A DNA stretch of 24,024 nucleotides. Source: Candidatus Thorarchaeota archaeon (GTDB taxonomy: Archaea > Asgardarchaeota > Thorarchaeia > Thorarchaeales > Thorarchaeaceae). Positions 10,377 through 23,872 of the stretch are shown here, piece by piece. The stretch's first letter is position 1; the number at the start of each line of letters is the position of its first letter. The stretch is from positions 1 to 24,024 of the forward strand of contig JBHIAE010000042.1 in NCBI GenBank assembly GCA_046758445.1, in the 5' to 3' direction. The notes under the pieces were generated by a model. It was not told the origin of the DNA. It saw only the letters and a program-made list of their open reading frames with translations, and did no database searches. The translations under genes and the position numbers were made by a program.

Positions 10377-11333
10377 TCAAGCCCTGGCTTCCTTCTCGTA
10401 TGGTACTGCAATTCCCTTCGGAGGAATCGACTTCCGGATTCCAGCCAAGGCGATTATCACAAACACATAGGGAATCATCTGTATGAAATTGTTAAATGGC
10501 TGGAGCCACTCGAATCCTGGAGCGAGTACAAGTGCAAACTGCAGGCCGTTGAGGAAACCGAAGAACACCCCAGCCAGGAGGCATCCAATTGGAGTCCAAT
10601 TTCCGAATATGAGTGCGGCCAGGGCAATGAAGCCTCTTCCTGATGTCATGAGCTTGCCGAAACCCGTGCCGAACCCAATCGATAGGTAAGCACCACCCAG
10701 TCCTGCGAAACAGCCGCTTAAGACAACTCCAATGGCACGGACCCATTCGACGTTCACTCCTGCAGTGTCAAGAGTGCTAGGATCCTCCCCGGCTGCTCTC
10801 AGTCTCAGACCAAAAGGCGTCTTGTACATGACGTACCAGCAGAGTGCAGAAACTATGAACATCCAGTAGACAATGGGGGAGAGAGACCCAAATGCTATCC
10901 CAATGATGGGGATATCTTGAATCGGCTCGATGACGACTTTCGGGAGCTGTGTGACGGACTCTGAGTACCCTTGACGTCCCCAAACGACATCGAGCATCAG
11001 AGTTGTGAAGCCGCCACCAAAAAGGATCACTCCAGTGCCGCTCACAATATGATCCCCCTTGAACTTCACACACACGATTGCATGTGCAGCTGCCAATGCT
11101 CCTCCAAGTGCCACGGCCACTAGTATTCCCATCCATGGGTTGTCTGTGAAGTATGTTGCAGCGACTGCTCCAAAGGCACCCATGAGCATCATCCCCTCAA
11201 GACCAATGTTGACGACACCAGATCTCTCGGAGAACATCCCTCCAAGTGCCGTCAACACAAGTGGAGTAGACATTTGCAGAGTTGCTCTAATCAACCAACC
11301 AATAAGAGCAAGGGTCGGGTCAACAGCCTGCAT
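10377..11333 (-). CDS. Nucleoside/sugar ABC transporter permease (NupC-like)
   Basis: TPLVLTALGGMFSERSGVVNIGLEG, TPFGLRLRAAGE, GRGFIALAALIFG and C-terminal PPKGIAVPY motifs. Confidence 0.93.
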   Translation of the reverse strand: MQAVDPTLALIGWLIRATLQMSTPLVLTALGGMFSERSGVVNIGLEGMMLMGAFGAVAATYFTDNPWMGILVAVALGGALAAAHAIVCVKFKGDHIVSGTGVILFGGGFTTLMLDVVWGRQGYSESVTQLPKVVIEPIQDIPIIGIAFGSLSPIVYWMFIVSALCWYVMYKTPFGLRLRAAGEDPSTLDTAGVNVEWVRAIGVVLSGCFAGLGGAYLSIGFGTGFGKLMTSGRGFIALAALIFGNWTPIGCLLAGVFFGFLNGLQFALVLAPGFEWLQPFNNFIQMIPYVFVIIALAGIRKSIPPKGIAVPYEKEARA

Positions 11334-12841
11334 CAGGGTTCACCCCCTGTTTCTATGGAAAGCGCACGGGCTGTGAATGTGCCATATAAGGATAGTACAG
11401 TTCCCAACACTCCTATGACCAGAGGCACCAAAGTGTACTGAAGCGCAAGCATAAAGCCGATTCCCCCCACGCTTAGCCAGACTATGTAAGTCATCAAAGA
11501 AACGATTGGCCCCCGCGCTCTTCTTGACAGTGTGAGAATGAAGGCGGCAAGACCAGCCATCGCAGCGAACAAGAGTAGAGTTGACTGAGCCATCCCTGTT
11601 TCAATGAATCCACCAAATGCATAGAAGATGCTGAGGATATTGAGTATGACGAGAGCAAATGCAGGGACGGCGACGACGGGTTTTTCCTTCATCCATTTTG
11701 CAAATTCGACATTGCGGTTTGCTAGCCAATCGACGATGCGAGGACCGGCTACGAAGAGTACTACAAGGCCCTGGATCACACCAACCATCTCCGCTGGAAC
11801 TCCAGCCCTTAGCTGCATAGTATTCCCTCCGGCCTTCAGGGCTCCGAAGAAGATGGCGGCAGCAAGGACTCCCCACGGGTTATTGTTGCCGAGGACAGCT
11901 ACTGTAATCCCGTCCCACCCAAGATTTCCTTCCCATCCATCAGTGAATCTCTCGTAGGTGCCCAAGATTTCATTGGCACCGCCAACACCGGCTAGACCTC
12001 CAGCTATTCCCATTGCGAGAGCCATGTTCTTCTTCGGGTTGATGCCAGAGTATTCAGCAGCCTTCTCGCTGAGGCCAACTGCACGCAACTCATAACCAAG
12101 AACCGTCCTATTGATGAGAATGTCAACGCCGACTACACAGAGAATGGCGATAATGAGACCAAAGTGCAAGTAGGGGCTCCCGAGGAGAGGTGGTAGAACA
12201 GCAGTGTCAAGAATACGTGGAGTCTGTGAAATCCAAGCATAGGGCCCTTGTTCCTTCAATGGATATGTGACCAGCCATTGTGTCAGGAGAGCGGCAGTGT
12301 AAGATAGCATCATGGATGTGACCACTTCGTGAGCGCCGCGATATGCTTTCAGCAAGCCTGGAATGAATCCCCAAGCTGCTCCAGCAAGTGCAGCAACAAT
12401 GACAGATGCTAGTGGATGCACGACTATTGGCATTGAAAACATGAAGCCCACTATGGCGGCCGCAATGCCACCCATCAACAATTGCCCCTGAGGTCCAATG
12501 TTGAAAAGGCCACATTTGAAAGCGATTGCCACAGAGAGACCTGTCAGGATAAGAGGGGTCGCGTAGCGCATGACAAGATCCATCTGAGTGATCGAGCCCC
12601 ACATCAAGAAATAGAAAGCCTGCAAAGGGTCGTGACCAGACAAGGCCATAACCACCGAGGCAACCAAAAGGGCCAACACTATTGACCCAAATGACCACAA
12701 CACTTGCTTCTGAAAGTCCCGACTAGCAACCCTGTTTCGGATCCCAATAAGGAAACCCAAGATACGACTCGTTTCAGATTGGACTTCGGTTGAGGTTTCC
12801 TGTAGCTGCCCAGACGAGGACTTGGATGGTTCAGTCATCAC
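11333..12841 (-). CDS. Nucleoside/sugar ABC transporter permease (NupB-like) with a C-terminal hydrophobic extension
   Basis: ATPLILTGLSVAIAFKCGLFNIG, GAHEVVTSMML, GYELRAVG and GWDGITVAVLG motifs. Confidence 0.92.
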   Translation of the reverse strand: MMTEPSKSSSGQLQETSTEVQSETSRILGFLIGIRNRVASRDFQKQVLWSFGSIVLALLVASVVMALSGHDPLQAFYFLMWGSITQMDLVMRYATPLILTGLSVAIAFKCGLFNIGPQGQLLMGGIAAAIVGFMFSMPIVVHPLASVIVAALAGAAWGFIPGLLKAYRGAHEVVTSMMLSYTAALLTQWLVTYPLKEQGPYAWISQTPRILDTAVLPPLLGSPYLHFGLIIAILCVVGVDILINRTVLGYELRAVGLSEKAAEYSGINPKKNMALAMGIAGGLAGVGGANEILGTYERFTDGWEGNLGWDGITVAVLGNNNPWGVLAAAIFFGALKAGGNTMQLRAGVPAEMVGVIQGLVVLFVAGPRIVDWLANRNVEFAKWMKEKPVVAVPAFALVILNILSIFYAFGGFIETGMAQSTLLLFAAMAGLAAFILTLSRRARGPIVSLMTYIVWLSVGGIGFMLALQYTLVPLVIGVLGTVLSLYGTFTARALSIETGGEP

Positions 12842-14460
12842 GTCGCCCCCTCAACCGCCGCTTTGCCGTCGTGTCCGGCCATCAGTAGACCAAGCTCTTG
12901 GGCGTCTGTTTGGTCCGGTTCTTTCATGGCAACAATCTGCCCGTCGAAGATCACCCCAATCCTATCTGCCATCATTTGTATCTCGTCAAGCTCAGCTGAA
13001 ACTAGAAGTATTGCGACGCCAGCGTCACGCATCTGGATTAGGACATTATGAATATACTCGGTTGCACCGACGTCGAGACCCCTTGTTGGCTGTGCAGCAA
13101 CAACAAGCTTGGGCTCTGCTGACAACTCTCGTGCTACTATCACCTTCTGCTGATTACCCCCGGACAGAGTGCGAGCGAAATTCCTGACAGAGGGTACCTT
13201 GATGGAGAAGTCCTTGACAAGCAATTCTGACGTAGACTCCATCCGGTCCAGGTCCAGCATCTGATCAGCCGGTCCACCTGAGAAGGGCGGTCTGTAATGA
13301 CGCCCTAGTACTAGATTCTCTCCCACAGTGAACCCCAATATGAGTCCTCGAGCATGACGATCTTCAGGAATATGGCTTACACCTGCGGCCCGGACGTAGC
13401 GCGGACTCTTCCCTGTGATGTCATGTCCTTCTACAAACACCTTTCCCTCTCGTGGTTTCCTGAGTCCAGTGATTACTTCCACAAGTTCGGTCTGGCCATT
13501 ACCTTCTACACCTGCTATCCCGAATATTTCCCCGGACCTCACCGACAGGGAAATGCCCCTAACTGCAGGCAAGCCCCGGTTGTCGTCAGCATGAATGTTC
13601 TCTACTCTCAAGACTTCTTCCCGTGGAACTGCCGGGGGCTTCCCCACTCGAAATACAATCGGGCGCCCTACCATCATCTTGGCGAGCTCCTCGGGAGAAG
13701 TATCCACCTTGTTGACTGTGCCAACGAGTACACCGTCTCGGAGGACGGTGATTCTGTCGCATAATGCCATTGGTTCTCTGAGCTTGTGTGTAATCAGAAT
13801 GATAGTCTTCCCTAGCTCTCCAAACCTCTCCAAAGTGACAAAGAGCTCATCCACTTCATGGGGAGTTAACACGGAGGTTGGCTCATCCAATATCAGTATC
13901 TCTGCTTCTCGATAGAGAGTCTTGATGATCTCAACTCGTTGTTGGAGTCCGACTGAGATATCCATTACTCTTGCCAAAGGATCTACGTAGAGGCTATTCT
14001 CTTTTGAAATCTGTTTGATTTTCTCGGCGGCCTTCTTGAGGTTCATCGGCATTGTGTTCTTCAGAAGGCCAGTGATTCTTGAGCCGCCAACCTTGAAGGA
14101 CCTAAGGACCGGTTCCAATCCCAGTACTACATTCTCTGTGACTGTTAGAGGCGGGATCAGTTTGAAATGCTGATGAACCATTCCCACGCCCCTCACAATG
14201 GCATCTTGCGGCGAGCGCAGAATCACCTTCTCTCCACGTATCTTGACTGTTCCCGAGGTAGGGCTGAGGAGACCATAGAGAATGTTCATCAGCGTACTCT
14301 TACCCGCACCATTCTCCCCAAGAAGACCATGAACCTCTCCCTCTTCAATTCTCAGTGTTATGTCCTTGTTGGCTTCAACGCCTCCGGGAAAAGTCTTGAA
14401 TATGTTCTCGAGCTCGACGGCGTAGATTGAAGATACCTCCTCCAAAAGGAAAGTGGCCAT
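12838..14460 (-). CDS. ABC transporter ATP-binding protein, duplicated NBD (NupA-like)
   Basis: GENGAGKST Walker A, VHQHF, ILDEPT, GVEGNGQ, LSGGNQQK and AQPTRGLDVGA. Confidence 0.96.
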   Translation of the reverse strand: MATFLLEEVSSIYAVELENIFKTFPGGVEANKDITLRIEEGEVHGLLGENGAGKSTLMNILYGLLSPTSGTVKIRGEKVILRSPQDAIVRGVGMVHQHFKLIPPLTVTENVVLGLEPVLRSFKVGGSRITGLLKNTMPMNLKKAAEKIKQISKENSLYVDPLARVMDISVGLQQRVEIIKTLYREAEILILDEPTSVLTPHEVDELFVTLERFGELGKTIILITHKLREPMALCDRITVLRDGVLVGTVNKVDTSPEELAKMMVGRPIVFRVGKPPAVPREEVLRVENIHADDNRGLPAVRGISLSVRSGEIFGIAGVEGNGQTELVEVITGLRKPREGKVFVEGHDITGKSPRYVRAAGVSHIPEDRHARGLILGFTVGENLVLGRHYRPPFSGGPADQMLDLDRMESTSELLVKDFSIKVPSVRNFARTLSGGNQQKVIVARELSAEPKLVVAAQPTRGLDVGATEYIHNVLIQMRDAGVAILLVSAELDEIQMMADRIGVIFDGQIVAMKEPDQTDAQELGLLMAGHDGKAAVEGAT

Positions 14461-14524
14461 CCTTTGAGTTCCTCAACTAGACAAGCTCTATTTAACAATA
14501 GAGGATACAACAGCCAGGAAATGG

Positions 14525-14560
14525 AAAAAGAAGGGGAGAGGGAGGCTTTCGCCTCTCCTC
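14525..14560 (-). terminator. Hairpin plus pyrimidine/U tract after the BMP gene (putative terminator or processing site)
   Basis: Minus strand reads GAGGAGAGGC-GAAA-GCCTCCCTC then TCCCCTTCTTTTT, starting 11 nt after the BMP stop. Confidence 0.6.
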
Positions 14561-14571
14561 GTTGATAGCAT

Positions 14572-15654
14572 TCACGGGAGCCAGTATTTGGTGTCGGGCA
14601 CTGTTACAGTGCCGCCGATAATCTCTGCCTTGAGATTATTAACTTCCGTAATGATCCATGCTGGCACATCGAGTAGGGTGGAGTTGAGTTCATAGTCAAT
14701 ACCACCATTAGCGAGGGTGAACAGGTTGAAGGTTGTGAAGGTATCGAGGAGGACATCCTCGATAATGTCGTGTACAGCGACATCAACCCTCTTCAGCATG
14801 GAAGTGAGGACAAGACCCGGCTCCAAGTACATCTGTGGGGAGTCAACACCAATACACCATATGGGACCGTAAGTTGCATTGTTTTCAGCCACGCTGTCAA
14901 ACACTCCAAGTCCCGAGCGGCCAGCAGCTGCAAATATGACATCGGTTCCCGTTGTGTACATACCGTCAGCCAATGACTTTCCCGCAGCGGTGTCGACCCA
15001 GTCATTCGTATATGCGAAGTTGAAATCGACTCCTGGTGTCAACATGGTACCGTTGACTTCGTACTGTGTCTTGTTGGCGCCCCAGATGAAACCGCCAAGG
15101 AACTTGTTGATCAACGGAATGTCCATCCCGCCAATGAAACCAAGTGGCTTGCTCTGGTTGTGATAAAGTGCTGCCATGGCACCGACAAGAGCGGAACCCT
15201 CATGCTCATTGAATAGCAGTGATGCCACATTCGGGTACTCAGTGTCGTTGACCCACATGTCCACAATTGCCCATTTCTGGTCGGGATAGTCATCGGCCAC
15301 TGTTTGAATAGCATCAGCTTGGTCAAACCCTATGCCAATGATGAGATTGTATGCGTCTGCGTACTCCGCATGTGCCGCGAATGCACGATGGAAGCCCTCG
15401 TATTCGGCGATTTCTGTCGGTTCGACATAAGTGAAGTTGATGTCGAACTCATTGCGAGCGTCGTCGGCGCCCTTAAAGCAGCCGTCGTTGAACGACTTGT
15501 CCCCGAGTCCACCCGTGGCGAACACGATTGCCACCTCGAACGGGTTGTCAGGCAGTGGAGGAGGTGGATTCAGAACTAACCATGCTCCAACAGCTCCAAC
15601 GCCAATGACAACAATAACGACTATGGCTATAATCGATCTGTTGCTTGAGCTCAT
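14572..15654 (-). CDS. BMP family ABC substrate-binding protein (purine nucleoside receptor-like), N-terminal TM anchor
   Basis: GGLGDKSFN, IIGIGF, FNEHEGSALVG, DVIFAAAG, IGVDS and TSMLKRVD motifs. ATG 15654 follows a GGAGTGA RBS. Confidence 0.93.
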   Translation of the reverse strand: MSSSNRSIIAIVVIVVIGVGAVGAWLVLNPPPPLPDNPFEVAIVFATGGLGDKSFNDGCFKGADDARNEFDINFTYVEPTEIAEYEGFHRAFAAHAEYADAYNLIIGIGFDQADAIQTVADDYPDQKWAIVDMWVNDTEYPNVASLLFNEHEGSALVGAMAALYHNQSKPLGFIGGMDIPLINKFLGGFIWGANKTQYEVNGTMLTPGVDFNFAYTNDWVDTAAGKSLADGMYTTGTDVIFAAAGRSGLGVFDSVAENNATYGPIWCIGVDSPQMYLEPGLVLTSMLKRVDVAVHDIIEDVLLDTFTTFNLFTLANGGIDYELNSTLLDVPAWIITEVNNLKAEIIGGTVTVPDTKYWLP

Positions 15655-15692
15655 TTTCTTCACTCCTGGCGATTTCAATCACCAAGATGGTC

Positions 15693-18658: not shown

Positions 18659-20413
18659 CTAGCCTGCCGAACACGACATCATGATCATCTTCAGGACTGC
18701 GGTTCTTATGTCGTCCTCCTCTTGGTAGCCCTCCAGTTCCTCCTCACAGATTCGGACAGTTGGCATAGCAGCTAGGTCCTCTTCGGAAACCTCTGAATCT
18801 GGATCATCTACGTTGACGACCGAGATTAGGGACCGTGATACGCCCAGCTCGTCTACGACTCCCATGAGAGTTTCGTAGACGGGACCACAGAACACACAGT
18901 GTTCTGACTTGTAGAAGGTTATGCATGTATCTCTGCTGCAAGGCAGTTCAACCTCCTCTTTCCAAGCAGGAAGTTCTACTACAAACGTGCTACCTTGTAT
19001 GGGATCGCCCGAAACGCGGTCCTCAACCCATACCCGGCCACCGAGGTCGCTCACAAGCTGATTCACAACAGTCAGACCGAGTCCACTACTCGAAGCATGT
19101 TCGTCATATTCGCCAGTTCTCCTGAAAATGCTCTCCTTCATTTCATCGGAAATTCCAGGACCATGATCAGAGAACTCGATCTTCATTCTCTGACCCATAT
19201 CGATGAGCTCTGCGTTGACATCCATCTCAACCTCTTTCCGTTCGTCGTACATTAGCGCATTATGGATTATCACAAAGAAGACGCTCCACAACCACGCGTG
19301 GGCAGGTACCCAAAATGCATCATCCTCAATATTCGAATTCACTTTGATACTCTTCGTTTCAAAGTCCCTGTCTGCCTCTCTAAGCCCTCTCTGGAAATGC
19401 GGCCATAGATCAGTCTTCGAAATGGTGGGCGGCGAGTCCCTGAGCATGATGATTGCCCTCATATTGGCGATCATCCGGGCTGCTCGTCTGATGTTCCACA
19501 GAGTTTCACTGAGGACTTCACGATGATGATCGGGTAAGTCAAGGGTCGTGCTGAGAAACTCGAGCGTGTAAAGGGCGCTATGATTCACGTTATTCAGGTC
19601 ACTTGTCATTACGCCAATATAGAGGTCAGCACGTTGTTTCTCTTCCAGCACCCTCTGCTCTGCTGCACGCCTCTGGGTCACGTCAAAGGCCATAAGGCCT
19701 ATCTCGGCTGGCTTTTCTGCACCTGTTGTAAGCGCACGAGAGGAAACATTCGCCCAGATGATCTTACCGTCTGGACGTTTCATCTCAATCTCAATTCCGC
19801 CGACACTCTTTCCTCTGAGGACCTCTCGAATCAGCTGTTCGCCCAGATCATAGTCTGGAGTGGTTTCGATCAGGAAGTTGCTTATGGGCCTGCCAATGAT
19901 ATCGCCGCCGTCACAATCGAACAGTTCCTCGGTTGCCTGGTTGATCTGTTCTATCATTCCATTTCGATTCAACATCAGGTAGGCGATTGGAGACATGTCG
20001 TACAAGGATGCGAATCTGTCTTCCAATGCGATTACTTCTGCTTCCAGGGCAATCTGCCTCGATACGTCTCGCACCGATGCCAGAACTGCAGACTCCCCTT
20101 CAAACACTACGCCAACAGGGTGTATCTCAACATGAAGTGTGTCCCCATCTTTCGACCTTAGCCTAGTATTAAATGCAGACAGGTCATCGCCAGAGTAGAG
20201 GGCATCGATCATCTTGCGATCAAATCGTTTCGCCAAGGGATCAAGTAGTTCTTCGAAAGATATGTCAAGTATGTCATCTGGTTCATAGTTTAGCATCGAA
20301 GAGAATGCTGCGTTCGAGAGGACCACGTCCTCATCCACAAGCACAATGATGCCGTCGTGAACTACTTCCAGAAGCCTATGATGCCATTCCGCTTCCTCTC
20401 TTTCGACAGCCAT
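18659..20413 (-). CDS. Cytoplasmic PAS-PAS-HisKA-HATPase sensor (probable pseudo-kinase) with a C-terminal thioredoxin-like domain
   Basis: Two PAS/PAC repeats (ending SVRDVS and AFDVT), an H-box reading MTSDLNN, an N box HNA, G1 DHGPGI, G2 GLGL, GSTF, then FYKSEHCVFCGP...MPTVRI. Confidence 0.88.
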   Translation of the reverse strand: MAVEREEAEWHHRLLEVVHDGIIVLVDEDVVLSNAAFSSMLNYEPDDILDISFEELLDPLAKRFDRKMIDALYSGDDLSAFNTRLRSKDGDTLHVEIHPVGVVFEGESAVLASVRDVSRQIALEAEVIALEDRFASLYDMSPIAYLMLNRNGMIEQINQATEELFDCDGGDIIGRPISNFLIETTPDYDLGEQLIREVLRGKSVGGIEIEMKRPDGKIIWANVSSRALTTGAEKPAEIGLMAFDVTQRRAAEQRVLEEKQRADLYIGVMTSDLNNVNHSALYTLEFLSTTLDLPDHHREVLSETLWNIRRAARMIANMRAIIMLRDSPPTISKTDLWPHFQRGLREADRDFETKSIKVNSNIEDDAFWVPAHAWLWSVFFVIIHNALMYDERKEVEMDVNAELIDMGQRMKIEFSDHGPGISDEMKESIFRRTGEYDEHASSSGLGLTVVNQLVSDLGGRVWVEDRVSGDPIQGSTFVVELPAWKEEVELPCSRDTCITFYKSEHCVFCGPVYETLMGVVDELGVSRSLISVVNVDDPDSEVSEEDLAAMPTVRICEEELEGYQEEDDIRTAVLKMIMMSCSAG

Positions 20414-20730
20414 ATGAATACCTCGCAGTCTTGGGCAGTTGCCGACAAGTTAGTCCGCTAACGCGGAATGCTCTAATAGTTCTACCGTGTCGAACCACGA
20501 TAGCAGAGGTTCCGCAAGTCTTTGATTGTTGCGGTTGGTCAACATTCAGGATAGGGACGAAGAGCCTCTCATTCCAAGAGAGAAGAGCAGTCGCAGCCGG
20601 TGTATGTCCTAACCACATATGTGATGGGAGATCCTGATTCTTTTGACATTCAACCACACCATATGTCACTACGCCAGTATTCATATTGTATCAAGAGGGC
20701 GGAGTCAGAAAGGCAGTCGGGTGAATCAAG

Positions 20731-20910
20731 ATACCTACTGTACTGGACGGGAACTGTTGCACGGGCTGTGGCAACTGCGTGAAGGTCTGCCGTTATGGAG
20801 TATATGAGAAGATAGATGAAACTCCACAGGTGGTCCATGTCCAGTACTGCAAAGAATGTGGGGACTGTATCAAGGAATGTCCAGAAGGGTGCATCAGGTT
20901 TAAGGACTAG
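20731..20910 (+). CDS. 2x[4Fe-4S] dicluster ferredoxin, 59 aa, apparent ATA start
   Basis: Not in the ORF track. Manual translation gives (I/M)PTVLDGNCCTGCGNCVKVCRYGVYEKIDETPQVVHVQYCKECGDCIKECPEGCIRFKD*, with two CxxCxxCxxxC motifs and a GGTGA RBS at 20720-20724. Confidence 0.88.
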   Translation: MPTVLDGNCCTGCGNCVKVCRYGVYEKIDETPQVVHVQYCKECGDCIKECPEGCIRFKD

Positions 20911-22020: not shown

Positions 22021-22857
22021 TCAGAACAGAATGTTTGCAGCCAAGCCATGTGTGCGACACAGGTCCTCAACTGTTTCCCGGACAGAATCATAGAACATGC
22101 TTTCGGGTCGGAGGGCCTTAATGATCTCGCTAGTCTTGTCAGGGAAATGTTCCGCCAGTGTCTTCCTAACCGCTGCTCCCACTCTCGGTCTCAGATTCAT
22201 CCTGTCGAAGTATGCGTAGTCGACACCTGCCTCACAGATCCTTCTGACCAAATCATCAAGCTCATATGTGGTAAGAAAGGGAATCATTGGTCCTACGAAG
22301 CAGTAAGTCTGTAGTCCTTGCTCCGAGAATGCCTTGAGTGTAGCGAGCCTCCGATTCGGAGATGGAACCCCCTGTTCGAAAGTCCTACACACAGCTTTGT
22401 CAAAGGTAATGATTGTGGCACCAATCTCATTCTCGGATGAGTACTCTAGCAGGTCTGCATCCCTAAGTACTAGGTCAGATTTGGTTAGTATTGAAACTGG
22501 GAATCCATTGTCGGCGAGGAGCTTCAGACATCGCCTCGTGACTTCGTAACGCCGTTCCAAGGGTTGATAGGCATCAGTAACGCTAGACAGTAACACTCTC
22601 TCTCGTTTGGCCTTGCGCTTACTCCAGAGTTGCTTCTCCAGAACCTCCGGCGAATTGATCTTCACATCTGTATACTTGCCCCATTCTTCACCGGCATGAC
22701 CAGTGAAACGTTCCATGAATCGTGCATAGCAGTAGCTGCACCCATGTTGACAGCCAACGTAAGGATTGATGGCGTATGCCACATCTGAAATCCTGCTCGT
22801 ATTCAGGACTGTCTTCGCCTTGACTTCCTTCACTCTAAAAGTACTCAAAAACATCAC
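22021..22857 (-). CDS. Radical SAM protein, spore photoproduct lyase-like (Rv2578c/SplB-related)
   Basis: INPYVGCQHGCSYCYAR, SSVTDAYQPLE, ILTKSDLVLRD and FE.GVPSP.RR motifs. Confidence 0.88.
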   Translation of the reverse strand: MMFLSTFRVKEVKAKTVLNTSRISDVAYAINPYVGCQHGCSYCYARFMERFTGHAGEEWGKYTDVKINSPEVLEKQLWSKRKAKRERVLLSSVTDAYQPLERRYEVTRRCLKLLADNGFPVSILTKSDLVLRDADLLEYSSENEIGATIITFDKAVCRTFEQGVPSPNRRLATLKAFSEQGLQTYCFVGPMIPFLTTYELDDLVRRICEAGVDYAYFDRMNLRPRVGAAVRKTLAEHFPDKTSEIIKALRPESMFYDSVRETVEDLCRTHGLAANILF

Positions 22858-23672
22858 ACCTCTCCTGTCTGATCTTCAGTTGCTCGGAAGACGAGGAAGG
22901 TGTAGTGACCGAGTCTACTAAGTACCTCAGGAGCAGCGTCTGAGTTCAGTTTCATCGCCTTCTTGGTTTTGAGGTCTAGATCTATCCCTTCTACGAATGT
23001 AAAGCCGCTGGCATTCAGAACCTTGACATTGTCAACGGGATAGAGAGAGCAGGGTTGAGCGACGACAAGTAGTGAACCATCTTTCATCGTGCTCCTGATG
23101 CCCTCCAGACTTCGTTTTGCATCGGTGTACGTCTTATAGTATTCAAAGAGATATCCAACAACGTCGTTATTGAGAATCCCGAACTCAAAGCAACCGTTGG
23201 GAAGAGGACCGCGACTCAATAAGTGGTCGTCCAGCCATGTCCTTTCATTGGGATGAAACTTAAGGTACTGAATCTCGGACGGTCGAAATGATGCTTCAAC
23301 GGTCATTTCCTCAAGTCTTGTATGTACTCCCCGGGCTCGAGAGTGTATCTGGTTCTCCTCAAACAGGCCAAGAAGACTATCCAGTCTCAGTGCATGCAAA
23401 TCAGTGCTATAGGTCGTCAGTCGTCTTATGAAGAAACCTAGATCAGCGATATTTGATTGCTTTTTCTTCAACCACTCATTAAGGAACTCACGAAACAACT
23501 TGATGAAGAAGGTCGGAACTCTGTCGTTCTCTCCTGAGGCGAAGTCGGCCAATAAGAAGTCATCAGCCTTATCGCTGACCCCGGCGTCCTTGTTTGCAAT
23601 GAGGTTGGCGCTAAGATACTCCATTACTTCTGGGCTTTCGCAGATCCAGCTGATAGGATAGAGCGTCCTCAT
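22854..23672 (-). CDS. Hypothetical protein, possibly a divergent class I SAM-dependent methyltransferase fold
   Basis: LLADFASG (motif I-like), YSTD (acidic end of the second strand) and SLEGIRSTMKDGSLLVV (LKPGG-like). Its stop overlaps the radical SAM start by 4 nt. Confidence 0.55.
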   Translation of the reverse strand: MRTLYPISWICESPEVMEYLSANLIANKDAGVSDKADDFLLADFASGENDRVPTFFIKLFREFLNEWLKKKQSNIADLGFFIRRLTTYSTDLHALRLDSLLGLFEENQIHSRARGVHTRLEEMTVEASFRPSEIQYLKFHPNERTWLDDHLLSRGPLPNGCFEFGILNNDVVGYLFEYYKTYTDAKRSLEGIRSTMKDGSLLVVAQPCSLYPVDNVKVLNASGFTFVEGIDLDLKTKKAMKLNSDAAPEVLSRLGHYTFLVFRATEDQTGEV

Positions 23673-23872
23673 TGCACCTTTGTTCAACGGTGGCTGAGAA
23701 TGTCTTGGCAGTGGCTATATGTTCTCTGGAATGTGAAACAAGACATTGACTCGAAGCCGTGTGAGCTCTCAGGTGGGTCAGTAGTAACAACAAGTGACCC
23801 TCATTTGTGGTGCCGCTTTATATACGGCTAATGGCTACCGTGAAAACAGTTGAAACCTAGGAGCGTCGTCAA

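Follow-up and report, generated by a model that had tools for sequence, protein, structure and literature searches.

The kinase-like gene and its product

The window, a stretch of 24,024 nucleotides from contig JBHIAE010000042.1 of a Candidatus Thorarchaeota archaeon (assembly GCA_046758445.1), encodes at 18659-20413 (-) an acidic, soluble protein laid out as a sensor histidine kinase, with Ser in place of the phospho-acceptor His and a thioredoxin-like (Trx-like) domain at the C-terminus. Searches against Pfam recognised PAS twice and HATPase_c once (PF02518, at 57.7 bits where the cut-off is 26.4) in the product, with no match above cut-off to the HisKA, receiver or thioredoxin families. The features of the gene, together with a neighbouring open reading frame (ORF), are given in Table 1.

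Table 1. Coordinates of the kinase-like gene, its domains and residues, and a divergent neighbour (AF2, AlphaFold2; DHp, dimerisation and histidine phosphotransfer; CA, catalytic and ATP-binding)
Feature	Position	Strand	Basis or remark
Whole gene, 584-amino-acid PAS-PAS-DHp-HATPase-Trx-like protein	18659-20413	(-)	ORF and Pfam; no transmembrane or receiver domain
PAS domain 1, residues 12-125	20039-20380	(-)	Pfam PAS families, two stretches
PAS domain 2, residues 130-250	19664-20026	(-)	Pfam PAS_9 4.9e-22, best stretch 144-247
DHp helical hairpin, residues 255-330	19424-19651	(-)	AF2 helices; profile matches to the genome's kinases
H-box GVMTSDLNNVNHS	19577-19615	(-)	Read from the ORF
Ser271 (AGT), phospho-acceptor column	19601-19603	(-)	Family DHp profile; alignment of 116 relatives
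HATPase_c (CA), residues 372-484	18962-19300	(-)	Pfam 1.9e-15; N385 and DHGPG kept, G2 SSGLGL, lid diverged
Thioredoxin-fold domain, residues 489-584, C-terminal	18662-18949	(-)	AF2, Foldseek, VIA
CVFC (C506, C509), start of helix 1, in invariant H-C-x-F-C-x-P	18887-18898	(-)	116/116
Pro551, cis-Pro position directly before strand 3	18761-18763	(-)	116/116; strand at model residues 68-71
Four extra Cys, whole span	18671-18940	(-)	
Extra Cys C492	18938-18940	(-)	
Extra Cys C497	18923-18925	(-)	
Extra Cys C556	18746-18748	(-)	
Extra Cys C581	18671-18673	(-)	
2x[4Fe-4S] ferredoxin-like ORF of about 60 amino acids (CTGCGNCVKVCR ... CKECGDCIKECP), divergent	20725-20910	(+)	Neighbour; genus-limited linkage

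A DHp profile was built from the family and run against the six-frame ORFs of the window's own genome. The alignment was gapless near the site, and the column of Ser271 was occupied by His in 6/6 other histidine kinases of the genome (LMVHDLMNINQ, LLMHDVSNYNQ, ILVHDVSNLHQ, LMAHDLANMQQ, LMGHDIRNQLQ and LMSHDIANHLQ), all of which carry Asn at +4; the original prediction, which had placed Ser where HisKA domains have the acceptor His, was borne out to the coordinate. Judged by these motifs, the DHp region is of an archaeal xHD(L/I)xNxxQ class that is missed by Pfam HisKA. An AF2 model of residues 250-584 comprised the expected two-helix hairpin (model residues 2-41 and 46-77 being helical), in which residue 271 lies midway along helix 1, and after it a CA domain with a disordered lid and then the C-terminal domain. 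A HMMER alignment with Thermotoga maritima ThkA (3a0r) placed the ThkA His three residues downstream of Ser271 across a weak ungapped stretch; this placement was set aside because the six same-class kinases of the genome align residue for residue, which was taken as decisive.

A protein search yielded 225 relatives, nearly all of 575-600 amino acids and at a coverage of 97-100%, the names among the matches listed being those of Thorarchaeota or Promethearchaeota with a few Loki-, Hod- or Sif-archaeal labels. For 116 full-length family members aligned with MAFFT (21 His-bearing and 95 His-less), the acceptor column held Ser in 66, His in 21, Asn in 10, Thr in nine, Gln in six, Lys in two and Tyr and Arg in one each, while the H-box around it (RAxLYLxVMTxDLNxxNQ) stayed conserved. 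Ser was present in all eight closest relatives of the window protein, and its codon, AGT, lies two base changes away from a His codon. The same nine proteins keep D272 (+1) and N275 (+4), the latter position being Met in 62/116 relatives. His278, in the NNVNH sequence and put forward earlier as a possible canonical acceptor, was rejected in that role, as 103/116 relatives have Gln at the position and orthologs from the same genus have Thr.

The ATP-binding boxes had been described as retained. This held for N385 (of HNA) and D416-x-G-x-G420, and F430 was likewise kept in the motif table; it did not hold for the G2 box, which reads SSGLGL against GRGLGL in His-bearing relatives, or for the ATP lid, which is altered at three positions (P436Y, Q439H and V441S). 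His-bearing members retained N385, D416xGxG420, G442RGLGL and the lid residues T433, G434, P436, Q439 and V441 in 21/21 cases. In the His-less members N385 was replaced in 65/95, by Tyr (37) or Phe (28), and lids were relaxed; most Ser-bearing members of the family also lacked this Mg-binding Asn. Since the N-box, G1 and D(+1)/N(+4) are still present in the genus of the window, nucleotide binding and regulator docking by the window protein are plausible on its sequence.

The C-terminal 100 amino acids were modelled alone by AF2 with a 48-sequence alignment, giving a beta-alpha-beta-beta-beta-alpha domain with a predicted local distance difference test (pLDDT) score of 83.9. Its best Protein Data Bank matches by Foldseek were all thioredoxins (probability 1.0, template modelling score 0.6-0.67), and a VIA all-against-representatives search returned about 25 thioredoxins at Z 9.0-9.4, above the N-domain of SasA (1t4z, 8.3) and KaiB (7.5-7.8). 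The domain fell below every Pfam cut-off, the best being Thioredoxin PF00085 at 14.5 bits against 23.5, and KaiB gave no Pfam match even at E<=10. A language-model look-up, of lead level only, placed small Thioredoxin_3/Glutaredoxin clusters nearest at 0.88-0.89. With a CxxC at the N-terminus of helix 1 and a cis-Pro before strand 3, both hallmarks of thioredoxins are present in the model and the alignment, and the Trx-like domain with CVFC, cis-Pro and additional Cys that had been read from the sequence was thus upheld. The domain resembles small thioredoxin- and glutaredoxin-like proteins (Thioredoxin_3/Glutaredoxin; Archaeoglobus fulgidus Trx3, 4xhm) in its minimal fold of about 85 residues, CxxC at helix 1 and cis-Pro. 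It differs from them in lying below Pfam cut-offs, in its H-C-(V/I/L)-F-C-x-P motif and an extra all-or-none set of four Cys, and in occurring, within one archaeal family only, either fused to a kinase CA domain or as a stand-alone protein.

Residues C506, F508, C509, P511, P551 and G562 were invariant in the 116 relatives and H505, K502, S503 and R570 nearly so; the invariance of CxxC and cis-Pro points to chemistry at that site. The remaining Cys, C492, C497, C556 and C581, behaved as a unit: all four were present in 39/116 and none in 77/116, with zero partial patterns, and the same rule held in 80 further loci. From the order of secondary structure elements in the model and standard thioredoxin topology, rather than from coordinates, the four would lie at the pole opposite the CxxC, where strand 1 begins, where strand 3 ends and at the two termini, and they may form a structural metal site there. 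Domains of this type are rare, amounting to 64 clusters among 1.84 billion representatives, and occur C-terminally on proteins of about 580 amino acids or as stand-alone proteins of 105-120 amino acids with the same six-Cys pattern.

Family history and the His-bearing twin

In a tree rooted on a kinase encoded on contig C9 of the window's own genome, 95/95 His-less relatives formed one clade (FastTree support 100) nested in a grade of His-bearing members. These basal members, which include a paralog on contig C23 of the same genome, share the architecture of the window protein. A single His-loss change was likewise recovered by IQ-TREE on 44 representatives (Shimodaira-Hasegawa-like approximate likelihood ratio test 100), and these reconstructions show one loss of the phospho-acceptor His from a duplicate copy. 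Orthologs of the window gene also lack the His, and the His-less clade covers many genera, so that the earlier reservation that the change might be a private mutation or error can be dropped.

Kinase features decayed stepwise within the His-less clade only. The reconstructed order is loss of the His first, then of the extra Cys and then of the Mg-binding Asn, with the CxxC never changing. A subclade of genus level that branched early, to which the window protein belongs, retains the four extra Cys together with the N-box Asn, G1 and D(+1)/N(+4). The ratio of non-synonymous to synonymous substitution rates (dN/dS) against the nearest ortholog (94% identical) was 0.055 overall, and 0.017 for the DHp, 0.051 for the CA, 0.057 for the Trx-like and 0.073 for the PAS regions. 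On these substitution patterns the His-less clade is shown to be under purifying selection, having kept its PAS domains, the DHp dimerisation and docking helices, the CA fold and the CxxC/cis-Pro site.

The His-bearing paralog (L002:1486-3270:-, EVATHDLNSINQ), referred to here as the twin, has all catalytic motifs intact. It matches the window protein in its PAS-PAS-DHp-CA-Trx architecture and six Cys, and differs in keeping the His, N-box, G1, G2 and lid and in lying within a conserved synteny. The two are about 45% identical over DHp-CA-Trx and 65% over the DHp alpha-2 helix. Between the His-bearing and His-less groups, identity was highest in the DHp (49-51%) and lowest in the PAS domains (32-39%, PAS 1 at 32%). 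The fusion to the Trx-like domain was found in every member, among them the 21 + 32 that bear the His and have all catalytic motifs intact; it is therefore older than the loss of the His, and the co-occurrence of fusion and His-to-Ser change that the original prediction had proposed as a test does not exist.

Among 61 genomes from the GTDB family of the window, a full DHp-CA-Trx match was found in 23/23 of the high-quality ones. None was present in 124 genomes from 26 other families of the phylum, which yielded one partial match without the Trx part. Typing of 80 loci across the family as His-bearing or His-less showed that about 31 of the 36 genomes with a His-less copy also carry a His-bearing one, the two sometimes lying about 20 kb apart on one contig. 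Some 14 genomes in five genera had the His-bearing copy only; five had only the His-less copy, of which four were 73-88% complete and one 92%.

Stand-alone homologs of the Trx-like domain, one to three per genome, were found in 27/27 genomes inside the family and in 1/124 outside it. The window's own genome has three, of 112-116 amino acids (L003:1456-1806:+, L004:1489-1827:- and L005, on contigs C59, C13 and C61). Their six-Cys pattern reads CGxxxC ... CxFC ... RIC ... CF, and they gave no Pfam match. Some of their relatives carry an extra GCxCGC insert. Selenocysteine in these proteins was considered and rejected, the apparent internal stops being natural terminators.

The twin lies in a conserved synteny in 25-27 of 32 loci (among loci L019-L065) and across many genera. 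Upstream are a CCG/HdrD-like protein of 530 amino acids and, divergently, an ArsR regulator with a heavy-metal P-type ATPase (HMA and YHS domains); downstream are DsrE and DUF5400 or, alternatively, a luciferase-like oxidoreductase. One genus has the CCG protein immediately upstream of the twin and on its strand. The window gene is without the ArsR, P-type ATPase, CCG/HdrD-like and DsrE neighbours of the twin. Judging from the genes around the twin, what the pair senses or does may concern thiol, sulfur or metal status.

Possible modes of action of the His-less protein

Taken together, a single loss, a drifting site, later catalytic decay, the retention of sensors, DHp, CA and CxxC, and a co-resident twin are best fitted by a pseudo-kinase paralog. 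At slightly below an even chance, we read the gene as a duplicated and repurposed copy of a lineage-specific soluble sensor kinase with a six-cysteine thioredoxin-fold C-terminus, and its product as a pseudo-histidine kinase that, by analogy with DivL, would act beside the active twin with its CxxC/Cys4 module as a redox or metal input. Because the acceptor His was lost from a protein derived from a working kinase of the same design, the product probably signals by binding or by thiol or metal chemistry and not by handing on phosphate. The Trx-like module is the one element never touched and is hence probably at the core of sensing or action in both paralogs; being older than the loss, it did not replace phosphotransfer, contrary to what had been supposed at first.

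DivL of Caulobacter crescentus, a kinase without the His, uses the docking surface of its DHp to bind a phosphorylated regulator and is inactive both as a kinase and as a phosphatase (PMC4211667). Like the window protein it has PAS domains followed by DHp and CA, carries a residue other than His at the acceptor site and is kept under selection; it works beside true kinases by binding rather than phosphotransfer, as is proposed for the window protein. DivL differs in having Tyr at the site and no thioredoxin domain, and in being bacterial and membrane-anchored with a known partner, DivK~P, whereas the window protein is soluble and archaeal and has Ser at a site that drifts. On this analogy the His-less protein would no longer autophosphorylate and would serve as a signal-dependent binding or regulatory protein in the pathway of the twin. 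It might do so by forming a heterodimer with the twin, or by docking to, or competing for, a shared and unlinked response regulator. Its own diverged PAS domains would supply a second input, and the thiol/disulfide or metal state of the Trx-like module would be the input that sets its conformation.

Several points weigh against this reading. No receiver gene was linked to either paralog, a single REC-like ORF being present across 62 loci. Co-residence with the twin counts for little, since nearly every genome of the family has the twin in any case. Between the paralogs, the DHp exceeds the CA and Trx parts in conservation by a modest margin only, and the AF2 model, being of a monomer, carries no interface information. 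That the Trx-like module is an input rather than an output is a guess, and the interaction, heterodimer and regulator of the pseudo-kinase are proposals drawn from the analogy. Finally, as the window protein keeps its N-box and G1, some ATP-dependent chemistry is possible.

A literature search turned up no published account of this pseudo-kinase clade or of any kinase that ends in a CxxC thioredoxin domain, and a census of archaeal two-component systems makes no mention of a kinase-Trx fusion; the His-bearing design is itself apparently undescribed. To our knowledge, few pseudo-histidine kinases have been described, all of them bacterial, and the only kinase-thioredoxin fusion we know of is SasA, which is without a redox site. 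Here, in a whole Asgard family, soluble sensor kinases come as a pair, one active and one dead, and each of the two has at its C-terminus a Cys-rich thioredoxin-fold domain private to the family. The decay series is unusually clear and opens two questions to direct test: the use to which a kinase scaffold is put after the loss of phosphotransfer, and the possible coupling of thiol or metal chemistry to two-component signalling in archaea. The heavy-metal ATPase, ArsR, Hdr-like and DsrE genes around the twin provide a starting hypothesis for the pair, namely metal or sulfur/thiol stress.

The alternative that survives best, possible though unlikely, is that the effector is the Trx-like domain, acting as a protein-disulfide oxidoreductase or, with the stand-alone homologs, as part of a disulfide relay, while PAS, DHp and CA gate its access or activity and phosphotransfer is dispensable. 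CxxC and cis-Pro are the features kept most strictly, being present in 116/116 members and thus also in those that have lost the His, N-box Asn and extra Cys, the fold and active-site placement match those of thioredoxins, and the family-confined stand-alone homologs could be partners. The same domain nevertheless occurs on competent His-bearing kinases and so did not arise to replace phosphotransfer; moreover, reductases do not typically have a hydrophobic dipeptide like V-F between the two Cys or a His ahead of them, and no thioredoxin reductase or substrate gene was linked beyond genus level.

It is less probable that the protein is a dedicated phosphatase or phospho-sink for a regulator phosphorylated by the twin or by another kinase. 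Such a role would accord with the x-D-L-N-N sequence, in which D272 and N275 are shared by the window protein and its eight closest relatives, with the presence of Asn at +4 in the six other kinases of this DHp class, and with the retained N-box and G1; the role of the His itself in phosphatase chemistry differs among kinases, which counts against it. In HisKA kinases the Asn at +4 is needed exclusively for phosphatase activity (PMC3510030), and as it is kept here a phosphatase-only role deserves a hearing for this genus. It cannot be the function of the whole clade, in which +4 is Met in 62/116 relatives and the N-box Asn is lost from the bulk of members, and the best-studied analogue, DivL, lacks phosphatase activity (PMC4211667).

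We give a similarly small chance to a broader arrangement, in which the fused and stand-alone six-Cys Trx-like domains would constitute a relay of thiol/disulfide or metal transfer, running parallel to phosphotransfer and, in the His-less clade, instead of it. In it, a CxxC 'transmitter' gated by the PAS-DHp-CA scaffold would have the stand-alone proteins of 105-120 amino acids as its 'receivers'. If true, this would be a two-component-like system built on cysteine chemistry.

Poorer still are the prospects of an adaptor of the KaiB/SasA kind, as had originally been entertained, with the thioredoxin fold as a pure protein-binding module recruiting the protein to a KaiC-like or other partner. 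SasA of Synechococcus provides a precedent for a Trx-like fold fused to a histidine-kinase scaffold (1t4z, PMC3161067), and both it and KaiB appear among the structural matches, although fold alone, as scored by Z, cannot separate them from thioredoxins. They rank under the approximately 25 thioredoxins, and the KaiB family gave no Pfam signal. The KaiB-like domain of SasA is N-terminal, lacks a CxxC and binds KaiC, and SasA keeps its His, whereas the domain here is C-terminal and has an invariant CxxC, a cis-Pro and the all-or-none Cys4, none of them features of KaiB or SasA.

Autophosphorylation of Ser271, in the manner of a Ser/Thr-type kinase like some plant receptors derived from two-component systems, appears very improbable. 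Ser or Thr stands at the site in 75/95 His-less relatives and the window protein keeps its N-box and G1; however, Asn, Gln, Lys, Arg and Tyr also occur there within the same clade, Tyr or Phe replaces the Mg-binding Asn in most Ser-bearing members, and a phospho-Ser could not pass to a receiver Asp. Ser phosphorylation, another suggestion of the original prediction, is thus unlikely as a mechanism of the family. An artefact or decaying pseudogene, for which nothing speaks beyond the missing His, can be dismissed given a codon two changes from CAY, Ser in the eight closest relatives, an intact frame, a dN/dS of 0.055 and a clade spanning many genera.

Gene neighbourhood and receivers

The His-less gene had no conserved neighbourhood beyond genus level among the loci compared. 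Within the genus, the neighbours of the window gene are the ferredoxin-like ORF, a haloacid dehalogenase (HAD) hydrolase and a convergent transporter of the major facilitator superfamily (MFS)/Atg22-like type. The ferredoxin-like ORF was present at five same-genus loci, its own and upstream of the ortholog in four genomes, and at 0 of the other 24 His-less and 32 His-bearing loci. In the window's own genome and at the locus of the closest ortholog (L006) it opens right after a stop codon with no ATG, GTG or TTG before its first Cys motif; an upstream Met is present in the three other same-genus loci. An ORF of 102 amino acids at 20376-20684 (-) overlaps the start of the kinase-like gene, lies antisense in the intergenic region beside the ferredoxin-like ORF and has no family match; it is probably not a gene.

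The window contains no receiver domain, as originally noted, and the four receiver (REC) genes of the genome are on contigs C9, C18 and C30, the last with two of them. Outside the family, the nearest DHp to that of the HK-Trx proteins (E 5e-21) belongs to a kinase of 369 amino acids at C9:56599-58049 (+) in the same genome. This kinase is followed directly by a gene for a CheY-like receiver, a candidate source of the regulator that the orphan HK-Trx pair might share.

Elsewhere in the window, a gene for a radical S-adenosylmethionine (radical-SAM) protein (22021-22857 (-)) overlaps by 4 nucleotides an ORF of 277 amino acids (22854-23687) that has no Pfam family; the two (22021-23687, (-)) may form a two-gene operon. 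The region 10377-15678 (-) holds an ordinary nucleoside-type ATP-binding cassette (ABC) uptake operon with a Bmp/PnrA-like binding protein, an ABC ATPase and two permeases.

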